Made by a program: the position numbers and the translations under genes. Of a stretch of DNA of 64,000 nucleotides, positions 18,910 through 51,394 are shown piece after piece (position 1 is the stretch's first letter; every line of letters starts with the position of its first letter). Location: assembly GCA_965262935.1 (NCBI GenBank), contig OZ253572.1:6846445-6910444 (forward strand), in the 5' to 3' direction. The notes below the pieces were generated by a model. That model was not told the DNA's origin and searched no databases. It worked only from the letters and a program-made list of their open reading frames with translations. The DNA is from Spirochaetia bacterium (lineage in GTDB: Bacteria; Spirochaetota; Spirochaetia; SZUA-6; Bin103).

Positions 18910-20031
18910 TCACAGCGGCTCGCGCACCGCGGTGGCGCCAATCCAGCGGCCCGGCTTGGCGGCGGCGTCCTCCCCGCCACGCAGCACCCGCACGACCGCA
19001 CCGCGCGGCGCTGCCGCCGCGCCGCGCTCCGGGCCGCCAGCGGCGCCATCCTCGGCTTCAGGTTGCACTTCCGCTGGTTCATCGCCGGTCGCCTGGGCCT
19101 CCGGGTCGAGCACCGCCAGGTCGGCGTCGCAGCCCGGGTGGAGGCGCCCCTTCGCCGGCAGGCCCAGTAGCCGCGCCGGCTGCCAGCACAGCAGGGCCGC
19201 CAACTCCTCCAGGGCGATGTGCCCCGGCGCGACCCCCGCCCGCCACAGGTGAGCCAGCAACTGGCGGTCGGTGGCGGCCTCCTCGGCTCCGAGGCTCACC
19301 ATGCGCACCGTCCCGGAGCGCACCGCCGGCCACCACTCCGCGGCCGCCCTCGGCTCGGCGAGCAGCAGGTGCGCCGGCGCCGCCACCGCGATGCCGCTGC
19401 CCGGCTCGCCGCTGCGCAGCGCCGTCGCCAGCGCCGCCCGCATGCCGGCCGCACCGGCGGGAGCCAGCACCACCCGGCCGCCGTCGAGCGGCAACGGTAG
19501 CCCGCCGACGCTGCGCTCCATGACGCGTGCATCGTCGCTGAGCACCACCAGGGTCGCCCCGCAGTGGCCGGTCACCCGCACCAGGTCGTCGTCCCAGCCC
19601 GGCTCCGTCAGGATGCGGTCGTCGACCGCGAACGCCGCGCAGCCTTGCCCGAACACCGCCTCCGGCAGCACTTCCAGCTCCGGCTCCAGCCCCCGCAACA
19701 GCGGAATCGGCACCGCATCCACGGCGTACGCCGCATCGGCGTCGGGCTCCCCGTCCCCCGGCGGCGCGGCAGGCGCAGCGAGACTCGCAACCGGCACGCC
19801 CACCGTGGTGGCCGGGCAGCCGCCGCGCCCGGCCAGCGGCATGCCGGAACGGCACAGCACCACCGGGCCGGGAAATACCAGCTTGCCGGTCAGATCGCGC
19901 CACCCCGCCGCCTCGGCCGCATCCGAGCGCGCCATGCGCAGCGCGCGCACTACCCCGCCGCCCATCTCCAGGTCGGCCACGAACCGCCCGTCGGCATGCA
20001 CCACCAGCCCCTGATACAGCGTGCCACCCAT
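18910..20031 (-). CDS. amidohydrolase-superfamily protein, dihydroorotase-like, probably non-catalytic (metal-binding His motif replaced); repeat copy A
   Basis: C-terminal GRLHPGCDADLAVLDPE resembles DHOase-like amidohydrolases. The N-terminal V.PG.VD.H.H region reads LVFPGPVVLCRSG, as in PyrC'-type inactive paralogues. Confidence 0.55.
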   Translation of the reverse strand: MGGTLYQGLVVHADGRFVADLEMGGGVVRALRMARSDAAEAAGWRDLTGKLVFPGPVVLCRSGMPLAGRGGCPATTVGVPVASLAAPAAPPGDGEPDADAAYAVDAVPIPLLRGLEPELEVLPEAVFGQGCAAFAVDDRILTEPGWDDDLVRVTGHCGATLVVLSDDARVMERSVGGLPLPLDGGRVVLAPAGAAGMRAALATALRSGEPGSGIAVAAPAHLLLAEPRAAAEWWPAVRSGTVRMVSLGAEEAATDRQLLAHLWRAGVAPGHIALEELAALLCWQPARLLGLPAKGRLHPGCDADLAVLDPEAQATGDEPAEVQPEAEDGAAGGPERGAAAAPRGAVVRVLRGGEDAAAKPGRWIGATAVREPL

Positions 20032-20159
20032 CGCGACCGATTATACGCCCACCACTCCCGGTCCGACTCGCCCCCGAACATCCCGCCGCCCCGCGGCGGC
20101 GCGAGCGCCTCTCGCGTGGCGCGGGCCCGGAAATCTGCACGATCTACAAGGTCGGATTT

Positions 20160-20340
20160 GCGTGACTGGAAGAAAACCGTTCAGCGAGTTGGGCGATCAG
20201 CAGCTCCTCGACCAGACCAGGCGCCTGGCCGCCAATCAACGCAACCTTGAGGCGCACATGCTGGACCATCTCGACGAGAGAGATCGCCGCGGTCTGGCGC
20301 CGCGACGCGGCTTCTCGAGCCTGTTCAACTACACCCTTAT
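20160..20340 (+). pseudogene. N-terminal fragment of an HNH-endonuclease (DUF222-type) gene
   Basis: Translation FSELGDQQLLDQTRRLAANQRNLEAHMLDHLDERDRRGLAPRRGFSSLFNY matches the conserved start of high-GC HNH endonucleases, then degenerates into repeat element X. Confidence 0.4.
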
Positions 20341-20580
20341 TCGGTCTATTTGTAATTATTGTAATGGTTTACTTGTTTCACGAATATCCCGTTATTGCTT
20401 TCGCAACCCCTGGGTGATATCCGAGCATCCTTGACTCGCTTCGGTCTCGCGCCGTGACGCGCGCGGAGCCGGTCATCATGAATGTGGGCGGCGCCGACCG
20501 CGGCTCCGCCACCGCCGCGCCCACATCCCTGACCTTCTCGCACACGACTTGGGACACCGTCACACGGTAGGCCTAGCGGT
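20330..20580. repeat. repeat element X, copy 1 (~250 bp; second copy at 34040..34290)
   Basis: About 80% identity block from TTGTAA..TAATGGTTTACT through ...GTAGGCCT. It directly follows amidohydrolase copy A; copy 2 directly follows FG-GAP repeat B1. Confidence 0.7.
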
Positions 20581-20636
20581 GGAAACTACCCCGAATAGTA
20601 GCCGTAGTGCTGGTTAATTTGTGGTTCGATAAATAG

Positions 20637-20858
20637 TTACGGGAGGAGGCCGTGGCGTGTGTTCTGGTAGGCACTCAGATAGAGGCGGATAGCCTTCCAG
20701 ATAACGTCCGATCGGTTATGCGTGCCGGAGTCCGCAGCGATCGCGTCCAGCGCGTCGATCACCTCTTGGCGGATATTGGAGACACTGGCACGAAGGATCC
20801 CGTTGCGGCGGCATTCGAGCGCCTTCTCGATCTTGCTATTCAGGTCGTCCATTGGCAT
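20637..20858 (-). CDS. ribbon-helix-helix (CopG-like) small protein
   Basis: MPMDDLNSKIEKALECRRNGILRASVSNIRQEVIDALDAIAADSG has an RHH-like N-terminal beta strand plus two helices; low GC. Confidence 0.4.
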   Translation of the reverse strand: MPMDDLNSKIEKALECRRNGILRASVSNIRQEVIDALDAIAADSGTHNRSDVIWKAIRLYLSAYQNTRHGLLP

Positions 20859-21512
20859 GGCGCGCAGCGTATCGACCGCGGCCCCGCAGGGGCAAGGGGG
20901 CAAGGGGGCAAGGGGGCGTCATGGGTTGACAAATCTGTGCCGCATACTAATCTGGTTGCCGTATACGCGCCCGATGGAATGGAATTTCGTCCCAGAAATA
21001 GTTTACGCTCTCGTCGAGTTGCCGGCGGCGAGCTTTTCAGAACTGACCGACGCTCTAGATTAGGCCGTTTCCTCGGGAAATCTCAACAGGGTTCTCAGCG
21101 ACCGAAGCCCGCTGAGTGTAAATCCGGATGCCTTACGTAGGATGCTCGCCGAAGCAGAAGCGGATAATTAGCCTCCAGGGCTACCAGACGGCGGCCCTTG
21201 ACGTCAGCCGCGGGCATCGAACTGGAAGCCGGGAGCGTGCGACGGGTGAAGGGCTGGGGACAGCGATTTGTGCGCCGCGCCCTGGACGTCTTCTGCTCCG
21301 GGCCTCTATCCTTGACCTGCAACGCACTGGGTCAGACTGCGGTCATGCCGGGTCACCTGGTCGAATACAACAGATCCATCGCGGGGTGAGGAGTAGCTAC
21401 CTCACCCCGGAGCGAATAGTCAGGGACACCCACTTTCAAAGTGCGATCTGCACTCGGTGCGTTGCAAACACGACCCGGCACCTTTGGCTGCCGGGTGCTG
21501 GAGGCATCGCAC

Positions 21513-23111
21513 ATGGTGGCACAGGGGATGCTCAGGATCGTTCTCGGTGGACTGGTCATCGGTTCGGTGTTCCTTCTCGGGAGCTGCGAGGAAGTGGCAC
21601 CCAATTCCTCGCGTGCGGCCCCCGTGCCGACGGAGAAGCCTCCTATCTCGGACGACCCGCCAGAGCAACAGCCTGCGGATCCAGCAACAGCAGGCGCCCG
21701 CGTTTCGATCTCCTCGACGCCATCCGGCGCGCATGTCACCATCGACGGCGGTGCCGGCAACGCTCGCCGTCTCGCTGCGGCTGCCGCACCCATTACCACG
21801 CCAGCTACCATCGACCTCCCACCCGGCGATTACACTTTCACCATTACCAAGCCAGGAACTGGCACAGCGGGGGGCACTGTCAAGGTGGAACGTAACGCCG
21901 ACGTCAACCTCAACATCACCCTAAGCAACAGCACCGTCGCGGACCGACTGCCGGAGTTCGACAATCCCACGCTCCATTACTGGCACACGGAACTCTTCGG
22001 CCCCCTCCTCGGCGTGTCTCTGATAGAGGAACACCAGTATTACCCTGCACGCGACGACGAGGCCGAAAAGCGCGTCGTGCGGGGTGTGGCTGCCACGGCA
22101 GGCGACCCGCCTTACTCCTATGCCCTGACCGGTGTGCCGGTTGGCATGGTTTTCGATCCAGACACCAGAATCCTGTACGGCACGCCCGCCGTCGGTACTG
22201 CACTCATTTGGGAAGGCATCTACTCGATAACCGATGCTGATGGCGACACCACCGAGACCGAGATTATGTTCATCGTGTTTCCCGACTCCCGACCGTACTT
22301 CGATTCCGGCGTTGACGATCAGACCTACAAAACCGGGTCCGAGATAGTCCCGCTACAGCTGCCCGAAGTCAAGAGGACCGATATCACTATTCCAGAGAAC
22401 ACCACGGATCGGTCGGTCACCTTCGGAGGGAGGAGTGAAGGAACTCTCCCCGGCCATTGGGCGACCCGTGGTTGGGGCTCGTTCCCGGATTATGAGCCCG
22501 TCTCCGGCGTTCCCCACAACCTCTACCGAGACTACTTGTACGTGCGCAATCTCCAACCCGTACAATCGGGAGAGGTAACCGAGCCCGCAGCGTATTTCAT
22601 CGTCGGCACGCCCCAGGAGGTCGGCACTTTCCCGGTCACCTACACCATCGTCGATTCAAACGGCGATACGGCTGCGGTGGAGTTTACGATCACCGTCTTC
22701 GACCCGAGACCGAGACTATCTATAAGCGGCGGCCCTCTCATTGTACTTGAAGACGATAGGAACCCGAACACGTCTCATACCGAGATGTATTCGGTAACTA
22801 TGAATCGACTCAGCCATGAAACGGTGACTGTGGACATCGATACTGAGGACGGTACGGCAAAGGCAGGAGAAGACTACTCCGCAACCAATATGACGCTGAG
22901 TTTCGCACCAGGCACCTGGCACCAGCGTGTCGGCGTGGGAATCCGCAGCGATACGCTGGTTGAGCCTCCTGAGACGTTCTTCTTGAGGCTGAGCAACGCG
23001 GTGAACGCCACCATCGTAGATGAGCCTGAGCGCGGCCTCTTCGGGCGTTTCGCTGTCACGATCTGTGATAGGGGTTCTCCCGCCGCATGCGCCTCACCGA
23101 GAGAACCTTGA
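21513..23111 (+). CDS. surface lipoprotein with PEGA-like, cadherin-like (putative Ig) and Calx-beta domains
   Basis: Lipobox LLGSC after a signal peptide. The Calx-beta signature DGTAKAGEDY lies near the C-terminus; YSYALTGVPVGMVFDPDTRILYGTP is dystroglycan/cadherin-like. Confidence 0.7.
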   Translation: MVAQGMLRIVLGGLVIGSVFLLGSCEEVAPNSSRAAPVPTEKPPISDDPPEQQPADPATAGARVSISSTPSGAHVTIDGGAGNARRLAAAAAPITTPATIDLPPGDYTFTITKPGTGTAGGTVKVERNADVNLNITLSNSTVADRLPEFDNPTLHYWHTELFGPLLGVSLIEEHQYYPARDDEAEKRVVRGVAATAGDPPYSYALTGVPVGMVFDPDTRILYGTPAVGTALIWEGIYSITDADGDTTETEIMFIVFPDSRPYFDSGVDDQTYKTGSEIVPLQLPEVKRTDITIPENTTDRSVTFGGRSEGTLPGHWATRGWGSFPDYEPVSGVPHNLYRDYLYVRNLQPVQSGEVTEPAAYFIVGTPQEVGTFPVTYTIVDSNGDTAAVEFTITVFDPRPRLSISGGPLIVLEDDRNPNTSHTEMYSVTMNRLSHETVTVDIDTEDGTAKAGEDYSATNMTLSFAPGTWHQRVGVGIRSDTLVEPPETFFLRLSNAVNATIVDEPERGLFGRFAVTICDRGSPAACASPREP

Positions 23112-23357
23112 GATTGAGATGCGGAGCCGAAGGCGTGCGAGAGTTGGGAAGGCCCGATGGGGGGCAGCAGAGCGGTCCCTCTCTGTAATACTTGGCGACG
23201 GCGCCCTGCTCGGCGCTGCGACGAAGAAGGCAGGTGGTAGCCTCCCTACCCGGTGCGCCGCCATGTCCCGGTCGTTGCCCTGGCGCGATCTGGAGTCCCT
23301 GAGGGCGACCCGATTGCCGCCCCGGCTGTGCCCACCAGCCCCGCAAGTCTCGGTGGT

Positions 23358-24030
23358 GCGGTTGTGCGACGATCGGAACACGACCGCCCGGAAGCTATGC
23401 CGGCTCTTGGCGCTGGTGCTGCTGGTGGTGTTGGCTGATGCTGCGGCCCCGGCGCTGCCGTCGTGTCTGCCAAATTGCGCCGACGCGGATCTAAGCGGAT
23501 TTGATCTGGTAGGTGCTGACTTGGCACGTGCCGACTTCTCCTATGCCGATCTGGAAGGCGCGGACCTGACGGGCGCCACCCTCCGCTGCGCCACTCTGCA
23601 GGCCGCCAATTTGACCGGGGTGAGGCTCGCCGACGCCGACCTGACCGGAGCGGACCTATCGTTTGCGTATCTGGAGAACGCGGACCTATCGCACGCAAAT
23701 CTGACAAGGGCCGACTTGGCGGGTGCGATCATGTTCGACGCGAATCTGCGGGGTGCAGTGCTCGCGTATGCGTATCTCGGCGGACGGAACTATAGTCCGC
23801 GTCCCGGCTATATTGGCGCCTATCTATCGGTGATTCTGGAAAATGTCGACTTGACGGACGCGAACCTTGAAGGGGCGAACCTAACCGATGCATACCTGAT
23901 CGTCGTGAACCTGGAAGGTGCGAACTTGGCCGGAGCCAATCTGAGCCATGCAACTCTCACCGGCGCGGACTTCGCTGGCACCATTGGCTGCGACGTGACT
24001 GGACGCATTCCTGGCTGCGAAGCGCCATGA
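23358..24030 (+). CDS. secreted pentapeptide-repeat protein (paralogue 1)
   Basis: The signal peptide LLALVLLVVLADAAAPALPSCLPNCADADL is followed by about 35 A(D/N)LxG pentapeptide units. The start codon is uncertain (GTG at 23358 chosen). Confidence 0.6.
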
Positions 24031-24099
24031 TCGCACGCGCCGGAGGCCGAGCGGCCCAGATGCGGACCGATTCGAGCGAAATGGACCGCCGCGCGGCGG

Positions 24100-24240
24100 C
24101 TCCGCTCAGTCGCTCGCAGCAGCCGGCGCCGGCCTTGTCAATGGCAGGAAGCGGGCGATTGGCAGGCGCTCACCATGCCGGCGCACTACGCGCGGCACCA
24201 GCACGCTGCGCCGTCGCCAAGCTCCGCTAATAGCGGGCCG
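24100..24240 (+). pseudogene. tyrosine-recombinase 3'-end remnant (copy 1)
   Basis: About 90-nt identity to 27010..27100; encodes EAGDWQALTMPAHYA, the catalytic-Tyr region of an integrase. Confidence 0.35.
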
Positions 24241-24400
24241 GTAGCAGCGCATCGCAGCAGGGCCGCCGGCAAGCGGCTTTGCGCACGTCAGGTGGTATTA
24301 GGGAGACACCGTAGGGGCGTGACATTCCATTGATTGAATTCTAACATTTCCCCGGTGCCCCGGCCCGTCCGGCGGTCCAGTTTGGGAGCCATGTAAAGTT

Positions 24401-25294
24401 CTAAATGTTCTCGAACCAATTCGACTGGATACGCACGCTCTCGACCATCTCAGTCTCCACACCAAGGTGATTGTCCTTAAGCAAATCGCAGAGGCGATCC
24501 CCGTCGATAAGGTCAATCGCGATCGCGCCGTCACGAGTGGCCTCGGCTGACGCTTGATTGGAGAAATGGCCGGTGGTGGTGAACAAGCCTTTGTCGGCGC
24601 GTCCCTGCAACGCTCCGCGAAAATCTCTGATTTCCGTGGAACCGACGATTCCCTTCCAACGCTTACACTGGAAATAGACCCGGAACGATACAAGGCTCAC
24701 GCGTAGCATACCCACACCGTCGATCCCACCATCACCAGATTTTCCACGCACTTCGACTTTGGTGAACCCTGATTCGCGCAAAAGCCGTTGTGATAGCCGC
24801 TCAAACGCATCTGGAGGCATCGCGCCCAGCGTCGCCAAAAGCGAGGCCTTCCAGTCACCGACTTTATCTGAGCCCTCATCCGCCAGTTCCACGACATCCG
24901 GGGCCGCCTCTTTGTCAGCTTGCCGCTTGGTCCGTGTCCGGTCACGTTCTTCCAGCGTGACCTTCTCATAGATCGCGCGGGTCTCTTCGAGCTCCGTGAT
25001 CGCCACGCCACTTTCGGTCAGGGCCCAGACCCCGCGGGAAGAGTTCACTATCGCATTGCCGCGTTTGAGGTAGGTGCGAGCCCAGGCGAGGTAGTAGTTC
25101 ACTCGAGGCCGGTTTTCGTTCCGTAGCATAGTAAAGGTTAGCTCTGCTTCAGTCACACCCTCCAACTCGATCACCTTTTCGTCGAGCTCCTGAATGGTAG
25201 CCGATCCGCCCAAGACCTTAAGCGCCGCGACTACAGATAGCATCATTCCTGGTAAATTGGGCAGGCTCGCCGCGTCGATCTCAAAATGTCTCAT
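24401..25294 (-). CDS. mrr: Mrr-family type IV restriction endonuclease (Mrr_N winged helix + Mrr_cat)
   Basis: N-terminal MRHFEIDAASLPNLPGMMLSVVAALKVLGG (Mrr_N); C-terminal GKSGDGGIDGVGM ... FQCKRW ... FTTTGHFS (PD-(D/E)xK Mrr_cat). Low GC. Confidence 0.8.
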   Translation of the reverse strand: MRHFEIDAASLPNLPGMMLSVVAALKVLGGSATIQELDEKVIELEGVTEAELTFTMLRNENRPRVNYYLAWARTYLKRGNAIVNSSRGVWALTESGVAITELEETRAIYEKVTLEERDRTRTKRQADKEAAPDVVELADEGSDKVGDWKASLLATLGAMPPDAFERLSQRLLRESGFTKVEVRGKSGDGGIDGVGMLRVSLVSFRVYFQCKRWKGIVGSTEIRDFRGALQGRADKGLFTTTGHFSNQASAEATRDGAIAIDLIDGDRLCDLLKDNHLGVETEMVESVRIQSNWFENI

Positions 25295-26053
25295 CACCTT
25301 CTCAGGTTCGGCTATCTGCTGGCCGCCCGTCAAACCCGCTTCGGGCACCCACCCCACTACCAGCAGCGATGCACGGGGCCGTTGCGGCCGGTCCACGGGG
25401 AACCCCTGCGCCGCTCGTGTCCGTCACCGTGGGCAACGGCGCAGTGCCAGCCTCCACACACGGGGACGCGGGTCGGTCACCGCCGGGCGATCAGGACGCG
25501 GCCACCAGCGGCGGCCAGAATTGCTCCGGCTCGAAGCCGGCTTCCCGCGCTAGGCGCTCACGCGCTTGGTCCGCTTGGTCGCCGGTCTCCAGAGGTGGCA
25601 CGTCATGGCGGCCAGCGGCGCTCCAGCAGCCACGCGGCTTCGTGCGGCGGCCAGGGCGCCGCACGGTGCGGGCTCGGTCATGCTCGAAGTCTACCACCGG
25701 GGCGGCGCGAAGGGGAGCACGGGGCCGCGGCGTGACGGGCGCCGAGCGGGCCGCCGCAATCTCAGGCCGGCCGTGCGTACTCGGCAAGCCGCGCCCTGGG
25801 GTGGGCGGAAGCCCACCACCCCAGGGGGTCTACATCCGGCCGGCAGTACCCGACGTTAGGTTAGGCCGCCAACGCGGTTAGGGACCCCCGGCCCCCCTGT
25901 ACCCTTTAGAAAGTAGACAGTTCGTCAGGGCCTGCTAGAATCCCAGACGGGCAAGGCAACCTGCCGGGAGCAACCTTGGCCCCCCTGCGCCAGAGAGCAC
26001 CTGGGGGCCAGCGGGCGCTACAAGCAAAGCGTGAACTGAGGTAGTATGTGCGC

Positions 26054-26716
26054 ATGACTGCGTACAAAGCAGGAAGCCGTATGCACTGGTTGGTTTGGTT
26101 GACCGTCGCCTGCCTAGGTCCCGCTCTCGTCTCCTGCGCGACCCCCGATGTGTCGGCCTCCTACCTGGTGAGCAAAGGCTTGGACGTGAAGGAACGGGAC
26201 GAGAAGGGTCGGACGATCCTGCACCGCGCTGCCCAGGAAAGTGATGATCCGCGGCTGGTAGAGGCGATAATAGCTGCCGATGCGGACGTAAACGCGCGGG
26301 ACGAGGATGGCCTTACTCCCCTACACTACGCCGCTGCGTTCAATAGAACTCCGGAGGTCATTGAGGTACTGATAGCTGCCGGTGCGGACGTAGACGCACG
26401 AGATGAGGTGTTGGCCGCGACTCCCTTGCATCGCGCAGCAACATTCAACGAGCACCCGAAAATCGTTGAGATACTGATAGCTGCTGGCGCGGACGTTAAC
26501 GCACAGGCCAAGGGTGATTTTACACCCCTTCATCTGGCGGCAGGGAATAATTACGCGGAGGTTATAGAGGCGCTACTGGATGCGGGTGCTGATACGTCCG
26601 TGAGAACCGTCGACGGCGGTACCCCCTTTGATTATGCAGAACAACGGGAAGACTTGGCGGTGATCCGCGAGTATTCGGTTTACAGGCGCCTGCGCGACGA
26701 ACGCGATTCCGAATAG
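26054..26716 (+). CDS. ankyrin-repeat lipoprotein (four to five ANK repeats)
   Basis: Lipobox LVSC after MHWLVWLTVACLGPA; repeated TPLHxAA..G....V..Li.aGADVNA units. Confidence 0.75.
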   Translation: MTAYKAGSRMHWLVWLTVACLGPALVSCATPDVSASYLVSKGLDVKERDEKGRTILHRAAQESDDPRLVEAIIAADADVNARDEDGLTPLHYAAAFNRTPEVIEVLIAAGADVDARDEVLAATPLHRAATFNEHPKIVEILIAAGADVNAQAKGDFTPLHLAAGNNYAEVIEALLDAGADTSVRTVDGGTPFDYAEQREDLAVIREYSVYRRLRDERDSE

Positions 26717-26865
26717 TCACCGATTCCGCTGGGCGCCGATAGCATCCGCGCCATAGTGCGCGGGCCGTTGACGGCCGGCCGGACGGCAGCGTCACCGTGA
26801 CGGTGCGAAGCTCGTAAACCGACCAGGAAGGGCGCGGGCACGTCCGCTACCTCGGCGCGACTACC

Positions 26866-27114
26866 ATGCAGCGCTTGGCTACGTGGCATGGCGGCGCCGG
26901 CATCACCGCCGGCGGGCCGTTGTTCCGCCAGGTGCTCAAGGATGGCGCCACCTCCGGGTCGGCTCCGCCAGTCGCTTCGCAGCAGCAACCGCCGCCAGTC
27001 GAATTGCAGGAGGCGGGCGATTGGCAGGCGCCGACCATGCCGGCGCACTACGCAGGGCACCAGCTTGCAGCACGCGGCACCGTCGCCAAGATCCGCTACC
27101 AGGCGGGCCGGTAA
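26866..27114 (+). pseudogene. tyrosine-recombinase 3'-end remnant (copy 2)
   Basis: ELQEAGDWQAPTMPAHYAGH aligns with the E.M.AG.W....M...Y catalytic-tyrosine motif, and with remnant 51176..51394. Confidence 0.4.
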
Positions 27115-28287: not shown

Positions 28288-28377
28288 CCTACACCACGGA
28301 GCACACGGCGGCTACGGTGTACTCTGACGGCGGACTGCCTGGCGCATCAGCCATAGCAGCGGCTGGCGCCTCGGCGC

Positions 28378-42574: not shown

Positions 42575-42827
42575 CGACACGGATGTCGTCACAGTCAGCG
42601 CTTGCCGGATCGCTACAAACAAGGCGCACCTCTGACGGACCGAGTCCGGCGCAATCTTGTCTACGCGTAGTGCCGGGATTCCCAATCCCGCTCGGAAGTG
42701 CAAGGTGTGGCGACTCGGGGCGTCTCATGCCCGTGCCAGCGGTGCAGGTGCGTTCCGATACGGTCGAGCTGACGGGTCAGCGCACATTGTTGCAATTGTC
42801 TGCCACTTAATCGATCTCAGAAAGGCT

Positions 42828-43109: not shown

Positions 43110-43341
43110 GCGATACATAGCTGTTATTCATGGTCACGATGGAGAAGAGAGGGCTCGCGAGTACGCTGAATTCAAGAATCGTAGAGATGGCTTACGGTAT
43201 TCAGCCGTCGAGGGCGTCAACGAATGGCGGGTCGAGACGATCAACCATAAATCAAACGACGAGTACCGAGAAGTCACTTTCTACGGAATGTATGACGAGG
43301 ACAGAGCCCGCGAGTACGTTGCATTCAAGAATGCAACATAG
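43066..43341 (+). CDS. hypothetical small protein with internal duplication (EERAREYAEFKN / EDRAREYVAFKN)
   Basis: Low-GC 91-aa ORF; the internal repeat is seen in the translation. Confidence 0.3.
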   Translation: MRDALKSVNRCLIDERYIAVIHGHDGEERAREYAEFKNRRDGLRYSAVEGVNEWRVETINHKSNDEYREVTFYGMYDEDRAREYVAFKNAT

Positions 43342-43347
43342 TGGCAC

Positions 43348-44013
43348 CTATCGCCCGCCCCAACATTGCTGTGAGATTTGCGCCAAGTCATGTCGCAGGG
43401 TTTGCGGTGTGTGACGGTGATGTAGCTCTCTTAGTGTCTTTCCGTGGCAACACTTCACTAAGCGTCCGCTTCCGCACGGGCACAATCTATGTCCGTCATA
43501 TCCGTACTCGCTAAGGAAGCGGATTACTTCTACTGCCTCCTTCTCACATCTCAGGTCGAAGGCGTCCATGTAGAATTGTACTATCCCGGCAGAACCATGT
43601 TTTTGTTCCCCGAAAGGATGAACATCATGTTTCTCCCAATAGCGATATCCGTAAAGGAAGGGGACCAAAAGACGGTTTACGAACCCCAAAAGAGTCGGCT
43701 CGTTGTGAAATATGATGCGCGCCTTAATGGGAACGCAGAGGCAGAGCGTTCTGTCTGGATTTACGTGTTCGTACTCTTTAATTGAACCGCCGGTTTCCCT
43801 GGCTATGGGCAAGTCGTCTGGATACGATTCCGGTATGCACAATTCAACGTCGAAACAGGTCACAATGGACTCGAGTCCACCATAGTGTGCCCTAAACGGC
43901 AAAGCACCAGACAGGGCGGTTCCACCAACTTTCCTTTGTACTCTGGTCAGCTCTCGGTGGGTTTGCTGCAAGTCTCCGATCTGGCGCGACAATTCCTCGC
44001 TCAAACCCTCCAC
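43348..44013 (-). CDS. E2-like ubiquitin-conjugating-fold protein (short Cap2-like) with C-terminal SEC-C zinc motif
   Basis: EHVNPDRTLCLCVP matches the E2 HPN...C(L) catalytic signature. C-terminal CPCGSGRLVKCCHGK is a SEC-C motif. Overlaps the CD-NTase gene by 13 nt. Confidence 0.65.
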   Translation of the reverse strand: MEGLSEELSRQIGDLQQTHRELTRVQRKVGGTALSGALPFRAHYGGLESIVTCFDVELCIPESYPDDLPIARETGGSIKEYEHVNPDRTLCLCVPIKARIIFHNEPTLLGFVNRLLVPFLYGYRYWEKHDVHPFGEQKHGSAGIVQFYMDAFDLRCEKEAVEVIRFLSEYGYDGHRLCPCGSGRLVKCCHGKTLRELHHRHTPQTLRHDLAQISQQCWGGR

Positions 44014-45185
44014 GGCTTAGGGCCTTCTGCGATACTAATATTGGGAACGGGGATCGCTGGCGTTTCGGGCGAGATCAACGCAAGACGCGACGACGTGGCC
44101 GGGATGCCTAGGGCTGCGGCGAGAATACGGTCAGGGTTGGAACGACCAGTACCCAATATGTCAACCAAGTCCTCCTTCAGCTTAGCCACCCAACGGAAGA
44201 ACGCTCTGGCACGAGCGTGTCCATCCTCGTGCCATCGGTCGGCGAAATTCTCGTCTTGGTTGACAGGGTTACCAATATACCAAGTCCCATCTGGCTTGCG
44301 CCTGATAAGCTGCCTTCCTGCGAGGCTGCCTGTTGGCAATCGTCCTGCCATTAGTACGGCATGATCATCGAGCTGGCTTACAATTCCGGCAAGCGCTGCG
44401 TAAATGTCAAGTTCTCCTTGATACAGGTGCCCAGCGAGCGTGGTAATGATCATGGAGATTGGCCCATAGTCGCTGTTGCTGAACATAACGTCGCGGTGAC
44501 GTTTCATTATCTGGATGCTTCTCTGTAAGGGAGTACGGACTAGTTGATCGGGAACGTCGTCGATGGAAGCGTACACCGCCGCTTCCTGTCGAAAAATGGA
44601 CTCTTTCTGAGATGCGGCAACCCGCGCGAACGCTCCTCTGTTGCGTCCAGAGAACCATTCAGCGAAGCCACGGGGGTCGCTTGGCAACCAGTCATAGGTT
44701 CGGCCCTGCCTGTCCGTAATGGCAATCGCCGTAGGCCGACCGACTTTACTGTCAGGAACGCATGGCAGTATGTCCATGTGGAACCCGATGTTATCTTGTT
44801 CGGCATATTCAAGTGTCCAGCATCGACGGCCCTCATCATCGAGAAGGCCGAGATAGGTCTTGTGTTCGCGGAGGCGATCCCCGACCATCACCTTAACGGT
44901 CTTAGGTTCCGTTAGATATCGCGGAATAGACAGCTCGCACACCAGGTCGATATCATAGTCAGCCTCCGCCCCATGCTTGATCGGTCTTACGACAGTACCC
45001 AGGCGGAATGAACCCTGAGTGTAAATCGATGGAGTTTCGGACGAACCCTGATAGTTCCCGTTCTCCAGCCACTCTCCAACGGACTTGTACCTTTCGACTG
45101 CTTGTTGGTACTTGCTCGGTGAGATGTCGATGTCTTGTGCGATTCTGTTAAGAAACTCCGAATACCTCGCGTTGTCAATTGGCAT
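44001..45185 (-). CDS. cGAS/DncV-like nucleotidyltransferase (CD-NTase, SMODS domain)
   Basis: GSFRLGTVVRPIKHGAEADYDIDLV fits [GS]x..[DE]h[DE]h, with a third acidic site at HMDILP. Length is 394 aa. Confidence 0.8.
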   Translation of the reverse strand: MPIDNARYSEFLNRIAQDIDISPSKYQQAVERYKSVGEWLENGNYQGSSETPSIYTQGSFRLGTVVRPIKHGAEADYDIDLVCELSIPRYLTEPKTVKVMVGDRLREHKTYLGLLDDEGRRCWTLEYAEQDNIGFHMDILPCVPDSKVGRPTAIAITDRQGRTYDWLPSDPRGFAEWFSGRNRGAFARVAASQKESIFRQEAAVYASIDDVPDQLVRTPLQRSIQIMKRHRDVMFSNSDYGPISMIITTLAGHLYQGELDIYAALAGIVSQLDDHAVLMAGRLPTGSLAGRQLIRRKPDGTWYIGNPVNQDENFADRWHEDGHARARAFFRWVAKLKEDLVDILGTGRSNPDRILAAALGIPATSSRLALISPETPAIPVPNISIAEGPKPWRV

Positions 45186-45197
45186 AGTGTTCTCCGT

Positions 45198-46163
45198 CTA
45201 TAGTGTGTAGCATGGAATGAATTCCTCTGCTGTGGTGTCAAAGAACGTGGGCGTGAGGACGGGTTTTCTATCTCGTCCTAGAGAATGCCCAAGTCCCTTC
45301 AAATCGTCGATGACCTTCGCATCATCGAATTTGTATTGGTCTTGCGGTACTGTGTAGTCGATCCGGTGTAACGACTGGCGGTCATGCTCATGACCAAGAA
45401 GCAACCTAGTCATGCCTAGCGATCCATTGGACTGACCGTCCATGAACAGTTTTACGGCGTTTAGTCCGATTCGCACGAGACCAGACCGCTTGTGGACCGT
45501 GTATGTCTCGTCCAGGCAACCGAGGCTTAGCATGGAGAGAGACTCTGCTGGCCATTTCAGCACTGCGATAGCCTCGACGGCGGCAATTGCAGCTGGATTG
45601 TTGGCCCATATACCACCGTCAATCAGGCTCGCACCTTGTTTAGTGACATGCGGTGGAAAGATCGTCGAGGCGGCCGACGTGGCCATAGCTGCATCAATGG
45701 CAGGGGAGCGATAATCTGTCCGAAAGCGAGGATGGTGAGCGGTCTTGTAGACGTATACAGACTTGGCTTGCGGATTCCACGTTGGGACCACTAAACGGGT
45801 TCGAGAATCTCCGATGAGCTTGCTGCCTATCGTCTCTGTGAGTGCCGTCCGGAGTGCCTCGGGGCCGTACTTGGACCGAAATATCTGTCGGATGCGACGG
45901 GCAAACCGGGGCCCTCCGAATATCTTTGGGCCATGTTCTTCGTAGAAGTCGAGAACATCTGAAGCTCTATACCCAAGCCCAAGCGCAATCCCTATTATGC
46001 CGCCAGTAGACGTTCCCACGATTAGATCGAAATAAGAGCCTATTGGCTCTTGTAGGTCTTTCTCTAGCTCTGCGAGGAAGGCTGCGGGGAACGTACCAAG
46101 GATGCCTCCTCCGTCAATAGAGAGGATGCGCCGTTTCTTGTCGATGGGCCCCTGAGGTTCCAA
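45198..46163 (-). CDS. patatin-like phospholipase (CapV-like CBASS effector)
   Basis: IDGGGILGTF oxyanion motif, GTSTGG nucleophile elbow (GxSxG), and LIDGGIWANNP carrying the catalytic Asp (DG motif). Confidence 0.85.
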   Translation of the reverse strand: MEPQGPIDKKRRILSIDGGGILGTFPAAFLAELEKDLQEPIGSYFDLIVGTSTGGIIGIALGLGYRASDVLDFYEEHGPKIFGGPRFARRIRQIFRSKYGPEALRTALTETIGSKLIGDSRTRLVVPTWNPQAKSVYVYKTAHHPRFRTDYRSPAIDAAMATSAASTIFPPHVTKQGASLIDGGIWANNPAAIAAVEAIAVLKWPAESLSMLSLGCLDETYTVHKRSGLVRIGLNAVKLFMDGQSNGSLGMTRLLLGHEHDRQSLHRIDYTVPQDQYKFDDAKVIDDLKGLGHSLGRDRKPVLTPTFFDTTAEEFIPCYTL

Positions 46164-46417
46164 GGATCGATGTGCTCCACGCTACCGAAGTTCCGTCGCG
46201 GGGATGCCGGTGCGTCCAGTAGCTCTCTTTTTTGTGGTGGTGAGAAGCTACGTATTCCCAGGATGGCGTGTCAACCCCGAATCTTTGAGCGGCCGACCAC
46301 CATAGCAACGGTGTCGGTGGTCATACCGAGCGGTCGTAAGGTATACGCGTCCGAGAGGACCATGACAGGCCGATTGGGTTGAGACGATTCCCGTAATATG
46401 CTACAGTATCAGCATAT

Positions 46418-46790
46418 ATGGCATGGAAGCGAACGCAGCACAAAGCGCCAGGGAAGTACTACCGCAACGGGATCACGCTGATCGACCTGATGCGGATGTT
46501 CCCGGACGACGCAACCGCCGAGCAGTGGTTCGTCGAAGGCCGCTGGCCTGCCGGCGTGCGCTGTCCGTACTGCCACAGCGACCGAGCCACCCGCTGCACG
46601 CACAAGACCATGCCGTTCCGCTGCCCGAGCTGCCGCACGTTCTTTTCGGTCAAGACGGACACGGTAATACACGCCTCCAGGGTCGGCTACCAGAAATGGG
46701 CCATCGCCATCTACCTGATGACCACGCGGATCAAGGGCATCTCAAGCATGAACATGCACCGCGAGATCGGCGTCACCCAAGAAGACGGCG
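46418..46790 (+). pseudogene. IS1595-family (ISXO2-like) transposase N-terminal fragment
   Basis: The zinc-ribbon region CPYCHS...CPSCRTFFSVKTDTVIHASRVGYQKWAIAIYLMTTRIKGISSMNMHREIGVTQ matches the family. The DDE domain is absent because the frame degenerates after ~125 aa. Confidence 0.65.
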
Positions 46791-47176
46791 TGGTATATGT
46801 GCCACCGGATGCTCCGATGCTGCTACCGGGGCCCACCAAGCGGTCCTTGCTGAATTCTATAGGTAGTTGCCGCGGCACTACTCCAGGTAATTCCCCACCG
46901 CGGTTCGCGACACCTTCAGCGCGCCTCCAATCGCCCGCTCGCTGCTGCACACCCACGGGGCGAGGCGGTTCAAACAAGGTTGCCAATGCGAATGGTACGG
47001 AAGATATCGTTGGTCGCCGAGCGCAAATCGCGCCAAATGACTTGCCCGAGCTACCGCCGGCTATCGTCGCCGGGCAGCAGTATCACTACGGGTTACCGGT
47101 CAAAGGAGGCAAACTCCAGGATGCTGCCGCCCGATCCATTTCCACACCTCTTGACGGAACCTTCCCGGGGTGCGGG

Positions 47177-48154
47177 TCAAGCGTCCGACGTGGCAACGGG
47201 TCTGTCCCATTCTTCGGAACCGGACCAAATGCGATAAACGGTTGGTTGTCGCTCAGCGCCAGGGACGTTTGACTTCCCTACAACAATCATTTCGTGACAA
47301 CGATCTACTATTCGGCTACGCGCTGACAAGTCCGTCCTTACCGGTGAAATCAACCCGGCTACACCTGATATATCAACTCCGTCCTTGCGAGGATCACTAT
47401 TTGTCACCAATTCCTGCATCATGCGAATGATGTACAAACCAGAATAGATTACCACCAACTGAACGTAAGAGAGGCATCCGAAATGGACGCAGTTTGCCAT
47501 TCTATAGCGCTTTCCTGCGCCTCTATCTATGTCATCCGGTTTCACGCCAACGGCCACAACCGCGGGGAGCTGATCAGTATTGGCGTGAGCACCTTCGAAA
47601 TCTGCTACTAATTTCAGCGCATCCCTCACTGTATATCCAACGGAATTGACCTGCATAATCTTCATCTCAAGCCACTTATCCATACTGATCGGGCTTCCAC
47701 TTACATCGAATGGACTTGTCATTTTACACCATCCGTCTTCTTGAAATTCGATACCGTACAACCGCCCAATCTTTATTTTATGCTCACTCTCTGGTACCAC
47801 GACCTGTTCTCTCCTCCCACCCTCGAACCCCAACACCCATTCCTGACGCTGGGTACGCCGCTTCAATATTGCCTTACTGTACTTGCCTTTTTCTCCACCC
47901 ACTGACAGGAACTGCGGATCCAAAACAACTCTCTGCAGCAATCTAGCCTGTCCGTCCAAGCAAAGTTTTCGTATAGGTACTGACATCTGTCTGACGGCTG
48001 TTCGCAAAAGCAGTAGGGCGGTGTTCTCATTTGAATGAGAATAGGCGATTACCAACCGCTGTGCAGCTGTTGCGAGTTCCGTGACACACTCTAACATAGC
48101 ATTCACGGTCATAGGATGAACCTTTTTGTTCCAGTTCCACTCGATGCTTTCCAA
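47177..48154 (-). CDS. hypothetical protein (about 300 aa), low-GC
   Basis: Long ORF with distinctly lower GC over 47400..48150. The 3' end (47177..47300) is in high-GC DNA and may be over-extended. No motif recognised. Confidence 0.4.
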   Translation of the reverse strand: MESIEWNWNKKVHPMTVNAMLECVTELATAAQRLVIAYSHSNENTALLLLRTAVRQMSVPIRKLCLDGQARLLQRVVLDPQFLSVGGEKGKYSKAILKRRTQRQEWVLGFEGGRREQVVVPESEHKIKIGRLYGIEFQEDGWCKMTSPFDVSGSPISMDKWLEMKIMQVNSVGYTVRDALKLVADFEGAHANTDQLPAVVAVGVKPDDIDRGAGKRYRMANCVHFGCLSYVQLVVIYSGLYIIRMMQELVTNSDPRKDGVDISGVAGLISPVRTDLSARSRIVDRCHEMIVVGKSNVPGAERQPTVYRIWSGSEEWDRPVATSDA

Positions 48155-49008
48155 GACAATGGCCTCCCTGGCTTTAGCGCGAAAGAAAATTATGAGCTGT
48201 ACGATCGTCGGATTCTTTTTGTCACGACTGGTGGCGTCGTTCGCGATAGACCCGCATACTCACGATGTTCGAGAAGAGAACGCGGTGTCTTCGTTTTTAG
48301 GAGGCACCGAACTGATTCTTCCAAGCGGTTTCGAGTCCCTCAGGACCTCACAGCGGTGCGCCGCTTGACTTGTGTGGTAAGCACACTGGGGACAACCGGT
48401 TTCCAATGCCAACGCATGCTGTGCTGTTCGTGCCGTCGTTGTGCTCCTCCTGGTGGACAGCGGCGTTCTGTTCGCGAAGGGCCGCTGTCAGGTCTCGGGC
48501 GCAGCTGGCGACCCGCTTCATGCCCGTTCATGCTCCCAATGCCGCCGTAGAGCCTGCAGCCATTTCGGCCGGGGTGGTGCCAGCCGGTCAACCTCCGTAT
48601 CTCTCGGTCAGCAGTCGCCCTCTTAGCAAACGTAACCCACTCCGCCATCGGGAGTCGAGGCGAGGGCATAGAACGGAGGTCGTTCCGGAAATGATTCGGA
48701 GAGAGACACGGTAACGGTCAGGAGCGGACTGACACGAGCGGGGCGTTGAGACAGCGAAGTTCGTCGACGGAGCCCTGGCGGGGATGCTCTACCGCTTTCC
48801 GAATGCCGTAGACCCGGAGCTGTCCGACCGGCGGCCGACCACCGCCGCCTGATCTCGACGAGGAGGGGCGGGTTGACAACCAACGGAATACACCTCACAA
48901 TACCCCCCCCTCACCGTCCAACTGACGGTGGCCACCTCAATTTTCAATTGCCGATCCCGTGGTATCTACGGCTTTTCTATAGATGGCCGAGGGGGAGATC
49001 ATCAAGTA

Positions 49009-49545
49009 ATGTCGAAACGAGGATTGCGGCTCCGTGACGCATTTTCGCCTTTGGAACCGAAATCTAACCATGTTCATCTTTGTGATGCGTTCGGGGTAGT
49101 ACAAAACGTCATTAGAAGATATTCCGATAAGTTGTGGCCGGATGGTGCTAAAGAGTGCGATAAATGGAATTCCATTTGTAATGAGCTAATTGACCTGACA
49201 AATGGAGTATCACATAGAGAAGAAGACAGGTCATTTGAGGATGTACTTCGTGACCTAATTCATGTCTTCCAGCATGGCGAGGCACGGATTGCCGAGTTAT
49301 TAGACTCTAACTCCATCACAATTCCAGAAGAAGAAATCACACAACATGATGAAGCTATTTTTCAGTGGATGGACAGGGTATTTCGGGCACTTGTTTATGG
49401 TGCTATCAATTCACGTTTACCCGACAAGCAAGACTCTACTTTGGTAAGAATAACCTTGTTTATGGATGGATCGCCATCGAAAGAGGTTTTTGAACATACA
49501 CCCATGCCTAAACCACCGAGACGATATCGCAAGAAATATATGTAA
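49009..49545 (+). CDS. hypothetical protein (178 aa), low-GC
   Basis: Start MSKRGLRLRDAF; low-GC island ORF with no motif. Confidence 0.4.
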   Translation: MSKRGLRLRDAFSPLEPKSNHVHLCDAFGVVQNVIRRYSDKLWPDGAKECDKWNSICNELIDLTNGVSHREEDRSFEDVLRDLIHVFQHGEARIAELLDSNSITIPEEEITQHDEAIFQWMDRVFRALVYGAINSRLPDKQDSTLVRITLFMDGSPSKEVFEHTPMPKPPRRYRKKYM

Positions 49546-50240
49546 AATGGCGCCCGGCTGTTGCCGAGCGCGCGGTCGTCCAATTCATACGCATATCTAA
49601 CATGCGGATGATTACAATACCCTTCACAACTAGATGCCAAGTTGATCACAATCGTGGTGAAGGACTGAATTGATAACCTCAACCATGTTATTCCTCCGGG
49701 AATGACGTTGGAGCGACGCTTACCTATCCCCTTGGCATTTAGGTATAGGGACTCTTGCGATGGTCAAATTGGGTTACTTATAATACAGTTGTTGATGGTG
49801 GCGGAGCTGCTCCACCACCAACGGGAGGCCGATCTACCGGAGCCGGCCTATCCATGAAGCTAATAGGAACGGCTCCTATGGTACTTGCGCTTATCGTTCT
49901 GGTAGTACTGATCACAGGATTGATCTGGCTCGAATACCGGGTATGGCGCGGCGTCCTCTTAGGGAAGTGGGAAAGAAAGAGGAGCGTGTGTGCGCGCCGC
50001 CGCCCATGACGCCTCCGACAGCGGCTGGCGACCGGCGCCCGCATCGTACGCCTCAATACCCGGCGCATCCGCCACGTGCAGCCGCAACCGCGGCTGCCGA
50101 GTGGCTGCATCTGGGCGGTGGCGGTCACAGCGACTCGCGCACCGGCGTCGCGCGGATCCAACGGCCCGGATTCGCTGCGACATCCTCCCCGCGGTGCAGC
50201 ATCCGCACCACCACGCCGCCCCGCGCCGCAGCCGGGCCGC

Positions 50241-51192
50241 TCACGTTGCCGTCGGCGGCGGCACCTTCATCGCCACCGCGCCGCTTCCCTCATCCCCGCG
50301 GTCGGCGGCCGGCGCCTCCGGGTCGAGTACCGCCAGGTCGGCGTCGCAGCCCGGGTGGAGGCGCCCCTTCGCCGGCAGGCCCAGGAGCCGCGCCGGCTGC
50401 CAGCACAGCAGGGCCGCCAGCTCCTCCAGCGTGATGTGCCCCGGTGCGACCCCCGCCCGCCACAGGCGCGCCAGGAACTGGCGGTCCGCGGCGCCCTCCT
50501 CGGGCCCGAGGCTCACCATGCGCACCGTCCAGGAGCGCACCGCCGGCCAGCACTCCGCGGCAGCGGGCGGCTCGGCGAGCAGCAGGTGCGCCGGCGCATG
50601 CCGGCCGCATCGGCGGGAGCCAGCACCACCCGGCCGCCGTCGAGCGGCAGCGGCAGCCCGCCGACGCTGCGCTCCATGACGCGCGCGTCGTCGCTGAGCA
50701 CCACCAGGGTCGCCCCGCAGTGGCCGGTCACCCGCACCAGGTCGTCGTCCCAGCCCGGCTCCGTCAGTATGCGGTCGTCGACCGCGAACGCCGCGCATCC
50801 CCGCCCGAACACCGCCTCCGGCAGCACTTCGAGCTCCGGCTCCAGCCCCCGCAGCAGCGGAATCGGCACCGCATCCGCCGCGTACGCCGCATCGGTGTCG
50901 GGCTCGGCGTACCCCGGCCTCGGGGCAGGCGCGGCGAGACTCGCAACCGGCACGCCCACCGTGGTGGCCGGGCAGCCGCCGCGCCCGGCCAGCGGCATGC
51001 CGGAACGGCACAGCAACACCGGGCCGGGAAACACCAGCTTGCCGGTCAGATCACGCCACCCCGCCCCCTCGGCCGCATCCGAGCGCGCCATGCGCAGCGC
51101 GCGCACCACCCCGCCGCCCATCTCCAGTCGGCCACGAACCGCCCGTCGGCATGCACCACCAGCCCCTGATACAGCGTGCCACCCATCGCCGC
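50241..51192 (-). pseudogene. amidohydrolase (dihydroorotase-like) repeat copy B, frameshifted
   Basis: Two overlapping ORFs (50241..51011 and 50513..51337) together reproduce copy A, e.g. MGGTLYQGLVVHADGRFVAD and GRLHPGCDADLAVLDPEA, at about 90% nucleotide identity but in different frames. Confidence 0.65.
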
Positions 51193-51394
51193 CGCCGCGA
51201 CGGCCGCCGGCATCGACGGCGGGATCACCGGGCACTCCGGGCGGGTCGGCCTCGCTTCCGAGCTCACCGCCCGCGGCCCCAGTGCCACCGAGATGATGCT
51301 TGCCGGCGGGTGGACAACGGCGCGCATGGTCGCCCACTACCCACTACTCCGCCGGCACAACATTGTTCGGCGTAGTAGGGTAGGGAAGCGATGA
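51176..51394 (+). pseudogene. tyrosine recombinase (integrase) C-terminal remnant (copy 3)
   Basis: ITGHSGRVGLASELTARGPSATEMMLAGGWTTARMVAHYPLL matches the HxxR ... E.M.AG.W....M...Y catalytic region. It abuts the start codon of amidohydrolase copy B on the opposite strand. Confidence 0.5.

Follow-up and report, generated by a model that had tools for sequence, protein, structure and literature searches.

Same-strand copies of an amidohydrolase-like gene at a probable integration and recombination hotspot in a Spirochaetia bacterium

Introduction

Why should one protein-coding gene be found intact at one side of a block of about 30 kb of accessory DNA, inactivated at the other side and once more, as a short fragment, a little further on? 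This question is raised by a stretch of 64,000 nucleotides, hereafter called the window, from a Spirochaetia bacterium (NCBI GenBank assembly GCA_965262935.1, contig OZ253572.1, positions 6,846,445 to 6,910,444). The gene resembles amidohydrolases; its intact copy is referred to here as copy A, the inactivated one as copy B and the remaining piece as fragment 3. A preliminary description had suggested an old duplication or an integration-associated rearrangement and had also considered a collapsed or mis-joined repeat in the assembly. We compared the window with itself and with contigs of related Spirochaetia, labelled L001 to L017 (with c1 and c2 for individual gene copies on them). The gene probably marks a serially occupied hotspot of integration and recombination, where surplus copies erode by deletion. 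Erosion of the copies, reshuffling of the modules and the variable ends point to insertion, illegitimate deletion and recombination between repeated modules as the forces at work there.

Results

An intact copy, an inactivated copy and the leftover of a third

Self-comparison of the window, which the preliminary description had put forward as a check, recovered both the A/B pair and the third fragment. By self-BLAST, positions 18910-20034 matched positions 50125-51189 with 84.9% identity over 1132 alignment columns with 11 gap openings, and a global alignment of A with B gave 956 identical bases among the 1060 aligned (90%). Thus, the direct repeat of an amidohydrolase-like gene reported earlier was confirmed. 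Copy A (18910-20031, minus strand) consists of an intact open reading frame (ORF) of 373 aa, as had been claimed. Copy B (50125-51186, minus strand) is full-length and was delimited by its alignments to A, with which it has both the ATG (51186-51184) and the TGA (50125) in common. It had been described as about 90% identical to A and frameshifted, which held, and as ending at 50241, which did not: that position is the end of one ORF fragment within B, and homology goes on to the stop codon at 50125. The limits of A-B homology are about 8 nt upstream of the ATG and, on the 3' side, the stop codon itself. Between them, B shows a 1-nt deletion at gene position 60 (about window position 51127), a 61-nt deletion at gene positions 591-651 (about 50598) and a 2-nt insertion after gene position 951 (about 50297). 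Reading B from its ATG leads to a stop after 47 codons. The G+C content is 77% in both copies and 62% in the window. Over the first 900 nt the divergence is only about 5%, and A and B have identical runs of 82, 80, 59 and 56 nt.

Fragment 3 (53546-53690, minus strand; 146 nt in the self-BLAST) is 92.5% identical to A (19596-19741) and 95% identical to B (50770-50895). It is joined to an N-terminally truncated pentapeptide-repeat ORF (53169-53545, minus strand; Pfam Pentapeptide, E = 2.7e-23), in agreement with the earlier report of a third piece of about 150 bp fused to such a gene. BLAST and comparison with L016 and L017 identified fragment 3 as what is left of a third copy, C, which in these two contigs still covers gene positions 298-600 and 687-1122, plus 16 nt of a 3' flank termed E-type below. 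Compared with L016, a 1.8-kb deletion produced the fusion, joining gene position 436 to a point within the pentapeptide gene. The 5' edge of fragment 3 is unlike that in L016 and L017 and was therefore trimmed separately. We also considered the 146-nt fragment as a template or variable repeat of a diversity-generating retroelement. This was rejected, since L016 and L017 have a long third copy and the window has lost 1.8 kb; no reverse transcriptase was seen among the ORFs scanned.

Copy A is the only intact, promoter-bearing copy in the array of the window and, as judged from sequence, the functional one; B is a promoter-less pseudogene, and B and fragment 3 are both dead copies. Two further ORFs in this very GC-rich DNA are junction artefacts: 50513-51337 (minus strand), in which the antisense strand of an integrase remnant runs into copy B, and 53169-53717 (minus strand), in which an alternative frame of fragment 3 runs into the pentapeptide gene. 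Public assemblies list both of them as genes. We recommend labelling B, fragment 3 and the integrase piece as pseudogenes and not regarding ORFs 50513-51337 and 53169-53717 as real proteins.

Both copies recur in independent contigs

The exact 373-aa product of A (100% protein identity) was found on L001, an independent contig of 85 kb, which is 99.4% identical to window positions 8907-20091, including A and 61 nt upstream of it. For B, an exact 274-aa ORF across the junction with the integrase remnant was recovered from three contigs belonging to three other samples, and these contigs were colinear with the window over 40511-57387 (99.6%), 46868-52689 (99.2%) and 41614-53565 (98.4%). The structure of B is identical in L002/L015, L016 and L017; together with L001, the A and B junctions are reproduced in four samples. 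Moreover, neither copy is a hybrid of the other, the two differing by about 10% plus indels. The suggestion of a collapsed or mis-joined repeat was rejected, given the B junctions in three other samples and the A junctions in L001. No independent colinear contig was found for positions 20092-36525, where a search with the exact protein of ORF 29918-30922 gave none, and homologous blocks of this interval are present in L001, L008-L010 and L013; a mis-join within it would not involve the repeat.

Copies A and B carry different flanks and different 3' ends

Upstream of A, a block of 98 nt (20032-20129, minus strand; positions -1 to about -98) with a TATAAT box (20040-20045) is conserved in A and nine other copies. 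These 10 copies have three different left flanks, which diverge further upstream. The block is missing from B, which has just about 8 nt upstream of the ATG in common with the other copies. Downstream, two types of flank were distinguished. The E-type flank (GAACACATACTGACGG…, into DUF433) follows A, L008, L009c1, L010c1, L013c1 and copy C of L016. In the window, this flank, a DUF433 gene and a truncated PIN_10 toxin-antitoxin gene together occupy positions 17753-18909 (minus strand), as determined by Pfam (DUF433), gene calls and flank typing; PIN_10 has 72 aa here versus 161 aa in L008-L010. In relatives the DUF433/PIN_10 module is continued by a tyrosine integrase and then by another copy of the gene; the window has lost these two by deletion. 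The N-type, or backbone-type, flank (CGGCCRCGGGCCAGATGC…, toward the backbone) follows L009c2, L010c2, L011c2, L013c2 and L014, and B for the first 21 nt. By flank typing, this 21-nt remnant (CCAGATGCAGC; 50104-50124, minus strand) lies directly after the stop codon of B and is found at the same offset in all five of those copies. BLAST homology to the remnant copy in L010 likewise extends to window position 50104.

The last 180 nt of the copies co-vary with the type of flank. In A they are 95% identical to those of the other E-type copies, 82% to those of N-type copies and 69% to those of B, and in B they are nearer to N-type copies (73-76%). Copy B is mosaic, being E-type-like at gene positions 1-470 and N-type-like at its 3' end. 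Differences between A and B number 28, 29 and 47 at the three codon positions, and those between A and the intact orthologue in L003 number 36, 34 and 49; their distribution along the gene in A versus B also mirrors that in A versus L003. Since the A-B divergence has the profile of an intact orthologue, B diverged as a working gene and was inactivated recently. Both types co-occur in the genomes of relatives. Furthermore, the contig ctg256288 contains a partial copy, L004c1, of a different clade (96% protein identity to a clade that is about 75% identical to A), and extra copies can therefore be of foreign origin. Taken together, A and B are different alleles and not a fresh duplicate.

A tyrosine integrase remnant adjoins copy B

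The start of B had been reported to adjoin the 3' remnant of an integrase gene on the opposite strand (51176-51394, plus strand). We found here the C-terminal remnant of a tyrosine integrase (51174-51394, plus strand), in which the HSGR box and the region of the catalytic tyrosine are kept. The Pfam match is weak when taken alone (PF00589, E = 0.0019). The report is supported by the 91% nucleotide identity of window positions 51174-51361 to an L008/L010 gene with a precomputed match to PF00589, and 40 of 44 residues match this integrase over the HSGR box and the MVAHY tyrosine region. At the junction, about codon 113 of the integrase (…ACC GCC GCC GCG ACG…) meets position -8 of B (…CAT CGCCGCCG…), and the junction sits in (CCG)n microhomology. 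In L010, the integrase gene lies on the opposite strand directly 5' of the truncated second copy, the same relative arrangement as in the window. A recombinase gene, or what is left of one, thus stands beside the target gene in both cases. Further remnants of the same integrase occur 0.2-1.5 kb upstream of the N-type copies in L011 and L013, and also in L009. All integrases seen at copies of the gene are truncated or frameshifted, and the direct repeats span the whole coding sequence (CDS), not a short core at element ends. The earlier proposal that the repeat is integration-associated is borne out to the extent that B adjoins the remnant and that a close homologue stands beside the second copy in relatives. 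The recurrent boundary at -98, with its three different left flanks, may hint at an attachment (att) boundary and is suggestive only.

Arrays of the gene and variable cargo in relatives

At least six further contigs of related Spirochaetia carry between two and four copies of the gene, all on one strand; same-strand multicopy arrays are the rule in this lineage. The contig ctg256288 (L003-L005) has four copies: three partial ones (gene positions 2-717, 50-941 and 2-1122) are packed into 4.5 kb, and the fourth, 67 kb downstream, is intact. In L006, a metagenome-assembled genome (MAG) with 75% protein identity, a partial copy lies 2.2 kb upstream of a full copy. L011 shows, in this order, upstream backbone, a truncated copy, 4.3 kb of DNA, an intact copy and downstream backbone; L013 has a frameshifted copy and, after 8 kb, an intact one. 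In L009 and L010 an intact copy is followed by DUF433, PIN_10, the integrase, a second copy, CARDB and the backbone, the second copy being a full-length pseudogene in L009 and comprising gene positions 478-1122 in L010. In L016 and L017, as described above, fragment 3 is part of a long third copy. Of the six arrays checked, five have a single intact copy (A for the window, c1 for L009 and L010, c2 for L011 and L013); in L014 the sole copy within 10 kb on either side is frameshifted, and ctg256288 and L006 were not scored. Protein searches also returned dozens of fragment ORFs with 80-95% identity from metagenomes, as expected for many pseudogene copies.

In relatives, the gene forms a conserved single-gene locus between a TP_0789-like operon with a lipoprotein gene and rsmG-uppP-ftsK. 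Between the same flanking genes, content varies among L001, L003-L005, L008-L014 and L015-L017. L001, with a backbone 99.4% identical to that of the window, leaves the window at position -61 of A (window 20091/20092). It has a VapBC module directly at that position, where the window has 10.9 kb of other cargo, and the VapBC (PIN) module of the window, identified by BLAST and Pfam PIN, lies at 57368-58147; VapBC is duplicated in L008-L010. L001 is without 20092-31011 and has 31012-41686. Positions 34006-36413 are absent in L001 and L002, in which the FG-GAP gene is longer; both blocks, 20092-31011 and 34006-36413, are thus absent or rearranged in L001/L002. Both the window and L001 have lost the C-terminal part of PIN_10, the integrase, the second copy and CARDB found in L009 and L010. 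The preliminary description had A and B bracket about 30 kb of accessory DNA; the interval is accessory, but A and B are not the ends of a single island of that size, since its mosaic blocks are independently present, absent or reshuffled in sister contigs. Both the A-B interval and the DNA beyond B are a mosaic, made up of defence and toxin-antitoxin modules that were each gained and lost on their own.

The encoded protein belongs with the cyclic amidohydrolases

Pfam matches to the copy A protein were weak and confined to its C-terminus (Amidohydro_1, 27.4 bits with a cut-off of 25; Amidohydro_3, 28.5 bits). Sequence searches of the PDB matched the C-terminal part of hydantoinases, dihydropyrimidinases and collapsin response mediator proteins (CRMPs), and a profile search against the PDB gave a hydantoinase (E = 2e-12), with the N-terminus of the protein aligning to the beta-domain of D-hydantoinase. 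The motifs kept are G-K-x-V-x-P-G in the N-terminal beta-domain and D-A-D-L-x-V-x-D-P in the C-terminus; the central region is too divergent for sequence alignment. The HxH metal motif was not found: the protein reads PGPVVLCRS where D-hydantoinase has PGGIDVHTH, and 22 diverse members of the family have no conserved histidine there. The AlphaFold model was of low confidence (mean predicted local distance difference test score, 54). Its best Foldseek matches were all cyclic amidohydrolases (dihydropyrimidinases and CRMPs; TM about 0.45), which we took as weak support for the superfamily assignment only. The copy A protein is thus predicted to be a member of the cyclic amidohydrolase superfamily, nearest to hydantoinase and dihydropyrimidinase; it is probably neither a dihydroorotase nor a canonical metal-dependent enzyme. 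Of the earlier label 'dihydroorotase-like', the amidohydrolase superfamily stands, and the nearer likeness is to hydantoinase/dihydropyrimidinase, without the HxH motif. With HxH replaced and superfamily matches weak, the label can therefore denote the superfamily only. Among known proteins, the cyclic amidohydrolases (hydantoinase, dihydropyrimidinase, dihydroorotase) and the non-catalytic CRMP are alike to the A protein in being its best sequence and fold matches; they differ from the A family in that its HxH is replaced and its central region cannot be aligned.

The family is conserved down to 45% identity and seems confined to MAGs of Spirochaetia/Spirochaetaceae. A scan of species-representative genomes for the gene gave two loci, both in Spirochaetia MAGs, with 75% identity, which makes for a coarse taxonomic placement. 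A hypervariable part of the protein is the C-terminal linker (gene positions 941-1040), which differs in length and sequence from one close relative to another, and some members (P0104, P0105, P0108) have long Ala/Gly-rich tandem insertions in mid-protein.

Gene content and other repeats of the window

Accessory DNA starts at 20.1 kb and goes on up to the window end (64 kb) or further. Its cargo is rich in defence genes and mobility relics, the former including a cyclic oligonucleotide-based antiphage signalling system (CBASS), type III restriction-modification (R-M), Mrr, an OLD/GajA-like protein, HicAB, VapBC and PIN_12, the latter comprising IS1595-like and ISAzo13-like transposases and the integrase remnant. 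The mosaic block between A and B (20130-50103), examined with Pfam and PADLOC and by sister-contig comparison, has a GC content varying from 46% to 69%. After A it begins with a ribbon-helix-helix (RHH) protein and further contains a Calx-beta/PEGA protein (21441-23111), pentapeptide proteins and an ankyrin protein, Mrr (24401-25396), an alpha/beta-hydrolase (abhydrolase) fragment (29085-29405), DUF6932, HicAB (31401-32399), an FG-GAP protein, PIN_12 (34582-35670), type III res/mod R-M genes (36386-42574), a CBASS operon (43348-46163, minus strand) and an IS1595-like protein (46418-47272). DUF6932 lies between the abhydrolase fragment and HicAB, and the FG-GAP protein between HicAB and PIN_12. 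The CBASS operon is compact and comprises a CD-NTase cyclase, an effector of the patatin phospholipase type and an accessory protein of the E2-only type, with strong PADLOC matches. Mrr, type III R-M, CBASS and HicAB had all been named earlier as lying in this interval, and Pfam and PADLOC agreed. The abhydrolase fragment is 94-96% identical to L011 11670-11978 and L009 14958-15251, and in several relatives the abhydrolase gene is the immediate upstream neighbour of a backbone-type gene copy; the fragment is a further relic of the ancestral locus, left behind within the island.

Beyond B, the segment 51395-53168, between the integrase remnant and the pentapeptide gene, carries small ORFs (51391-51594, 51584-51961, 52020-52499) without Pfam matches. 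They are colinear with L016/L017 and form the cargo of a relic module common to L015-L017. A further accessory module (53733-57367, minus strand; Pfam and PADLOC) includes a T5orf172/PDC-S57-like protein (53733-54488, minus strand) and an OLD/GajA/AriA-like ATPase-TOPRIM protein (54514-56484, minus strand). Several PADLOC families matched this pair, partially only, and it may be a two-gene defence module. Beyond VapBC, toward the end of the window, lie an ISAzo13-family transposase and a second piece of an FG-GAP gene. On the other side of the array is the conserved downstream backbone (8907-17279), 99.4% identical to L001. From the side of the DUF433/PIN_10 module its order is a 152-aa ORF (gene calls), rsmG/GidB (16006-16695), a repeat-rich gene, uppP/BacA (13476-14303) and an FtsK-like gene (9784-12486), and L009-L012 have the same order beside the gene. 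The upstream backbone of relatives, with its TP_0789-like operon and divergent lipoprotein gene, is not reached within the window. A tRNA-linked island was rejected, since the only tRNA gene of the window, tRNA-Met (6780-6853), is far from the repeat and Rfam gave nothing else.

The window has several other repeats. In the backbone, the plus-strand ORF 14758-15897 (window 14700-15900) contains a long array of repeats with a period of 21 nt and a super-period of 63 nt, whose copy number and sequence vary between the window, L001 and L009-L012. A 235-nt direct repeat (20343-20578 and 34053-34290; 83% identical; also present in L015) combines an AT-rich promoter-like stretch (TTTGTAA..TAATGGTTTACT) with a following GC-rich ORF start, and one of its copies sits 300 nt upstream of copy A. 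The 3' part of the FG-GAP gene is duplicated (33584-33982 and 61849-62247; 96% identity); the FG-GAP copy at 32.8-34.0 kb has lost an internal segment relative to L001/L002, and a homologue of that segment is found at 63830-64000. A 150-nt direct repeat (24097-24243 and 26960-27113; 81% identical) lies on either side of the Mrr/ankyrin region. In intergenic DNA at 63181-63438, a G-rich unit of 19 nt (GGGAAGGGGGTAGGGTCCA) is repeated perfectly in tandem about eleven times, and L011 has a similar stretch (19625-19743). Finally, a 41-nt inverted repeat (48865-48905 and 63152-63192; 80% complementary) contains TTGACA, its arms being 14 kb apart.

Discussion

Which history could have produced this arrangement? 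A single integrative element of 31 kb, with A and B as attL and attR and the gene duplicated by site-specific integration, would leave same-strand copies flanking accessory DNA and an integrase touching B, and e14 at icd/icdC shows the same principle (PMC13626634). However, the remnant is not located between A and B but beyond B. The interval itself is mosaic, with 20092-31011 missing and 31012-41686 kept in L001 and with 34006-36413 missing in both L001 and L002. Accessory DNA continues to at least 64 kb, there is a third copy beyond B, and the repeat is a whole CDS without an identical core at an edge; we regard such an element as improbable. An old duplication of A in situ, with drift and later insertion of islands between the copies, is more improbable still. 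The copies do share a strand, and the duplication takes in the whole CDS, but their flanks show no relation beyond -8 on one side and the stop codon on the other, the 3' flank of B is of the backbone type, and the 3' end of A is 95% identical to E-type copies elsewhere and only 69% to B. Moreover, the divergence profile of B is that of a selected orthologue, not of long neutral decay, and copies of different clades co-occur in one genome. The simple old duplication considered in the preliminary description is therefore a poor fit, as the 3' flanks and 3' ends of A and B differ and each matches copies elsewhere. Although the window comes from a metagenome assembly, an artefact of collapse or mis-joining is hardly credible: B with both flanks is colinear at 98.4-99.6% in three other samples, L001 matches A, the flank downstream of it and 61 nt upstream at 99.4% identity, and the copies differ by about 10% plus indels, neither being a hybrid.

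A history of recombination only comes closer and is nevertheless unlikely. Repeated modules (gene copies, VapBC, FG-GAP) would drive unequal or Campbell-type exchange and the import of large fragments, and the integrase relics would be mere cargo. The breakpoints are variable, B is mosaic in the way described, other modules are duplicated too, microhomology is found at deletion junctions, and identical runs of 56-82 nt suffice for RecA. On the other hand, remnants of the same integrase family stand beside gene copies in at least five independent contexts, which is more than random cargo would lead one to expect, and the E-type 3' end travels with a defined module.

The serially occupied hotspot with eroding surplus copies, which we favour as the probable explanation, would work as follows. 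The gene with its upstream region would be a preferred entry for tyrosine-integrase islands and for DNA from related strains, the islands entering at or in the gene partly through a dedicated tyrosine integrase family. Incoming units would carry a whole or partial copy, so that each event would add a same-strand duplicate; one copy would be kept by selection and the surplus would decay. In the case of B, a single microhomology-mediated deletion may have removed its promoter, the N-terminal part of the integrase and whatever lay between them, and the three frame-breaking indels would have been gained later. B belongs to a separate relic module made up of copy C, cargo, integrase remnant and B. 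This module looks like an L010-type unit and may have been imported within a larger fragment or be left over from a previous state of the locus. With identical runs of up to 82 nt, A and B could, by the requirements of RecA, still recombine, and the 31-kb block could thereby be deleted or reshuffled. We infer that the repeats themselves have no function.

Several observations weigh against this hotspot reading. No intact integrase and no defined identical att core were found among the loci compared, and partial copies are cut off at varying places (gene positions 50, 97, 298, 478, 662, 717, 808 and 941); it is therefore by inference that site-specific integration enters our account. A fixed att core found no support, as the ends of partial copies differ, and the coinciding ends at gene position 941 in L004c2 and L011c1 represent one inherited junction. 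The N-type call for B depends on the 21-nt flank and on the weak difference of 73-76% versus 69% in a hypervariable segment. E-type copies are upstream of N-type copies in L009, L010 and L013, and the window has the reverse order, with B (N-type) upstream of A (E-type), an order that we could not obtain from any simple succession of events. Where the backbone is joined (window about 17280-17386), a split N-type flank was sought and not found; a scheme with B as the resident gene and 32.8 kb, including A, inserted in its 3' flank was unsupported for want of that distal flank. Among close relatives there was no clean empty site with the gene and without an island, L001 holding other cargo, and the comparators are all metagenome contigs.

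A stronger form of the hotspot reading is conceivable, if doubtful. Islands of a tyrosine-integrase family in uncultivated, probably host-associated Spirochaetia would use the gene and its promoter as part of their attachment region. Each integration would duplicate a whole functional gene and could swap the resident allele (xenologous replacement), and the decaying copies would form an ordered fossil record.

In practical terms, the lineage-specific gene and its relic copies provide a concrete landmark by which the chief variable region of defence genes can be located in this little-known lineage of Spirochaetia, and they illustrate that whole-gene duplicates can be by-products of island traffic and not adaptive duplications.

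Among known systems, tandem island arrays with repeated target-gene fragments have reportedly been found at tRNA and tmRNA genes in analyses of the type of Williams 2002. Such arrays are similar to the present one in the serial occupation of one target, in target fragments that separate islands and in the decay of integrases. They are different in that the target is here a protein gene of about 1.1 kb that is specific to one Spirochaetia lineage, with repeats from hundreds of bases to the full gene. Hotspots at tmRNA and tRNA genes have been described, and the E. coli pan-genome has integration hotspots of defence islands between conserved core genes (PMC10121019). These hotspots likewise show variable occupancy between conserved flanks, a cargo of R-M, CBASS, OLD/Gabija-like and toxin-antitoxin systems, and many islands with an integrase only or with no recognisable mobility genes. 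In contrast to them, the present locus is in another phylum, is known from metagenomes only, and is marked by duplication of the flanking gene itself.

The closest analogue is e14, the cryptic prophage in icd of E. coli K-12, which leaves the icdC pseudogene (Hill et al. 1989, as described in PMC13626634). There, too, an integrase-bearing element is found at a protein-coding gene, and foreign DNA is framed by the functional gene and, in the same orientation, a displaced homologous pseudogene. The copies differ by substitutions since one of them was borne by the element, and recombination between them would give a chimeric gene. In e14, a short C-terminal segment of icd is duplicated, the att site is defined and excision has been demonstrated, whereas the lineage of the window has whole and partial copies, up to four per array, variable breakpoints and integrases that were all seen as remnants. 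The repeat is thus a familiar kind of genome scar and reveals no new mechanism; the window is distinct from the known cases in its lineage-specific protein target, in the repetition of whole genes and in the several generations of relics preserved.

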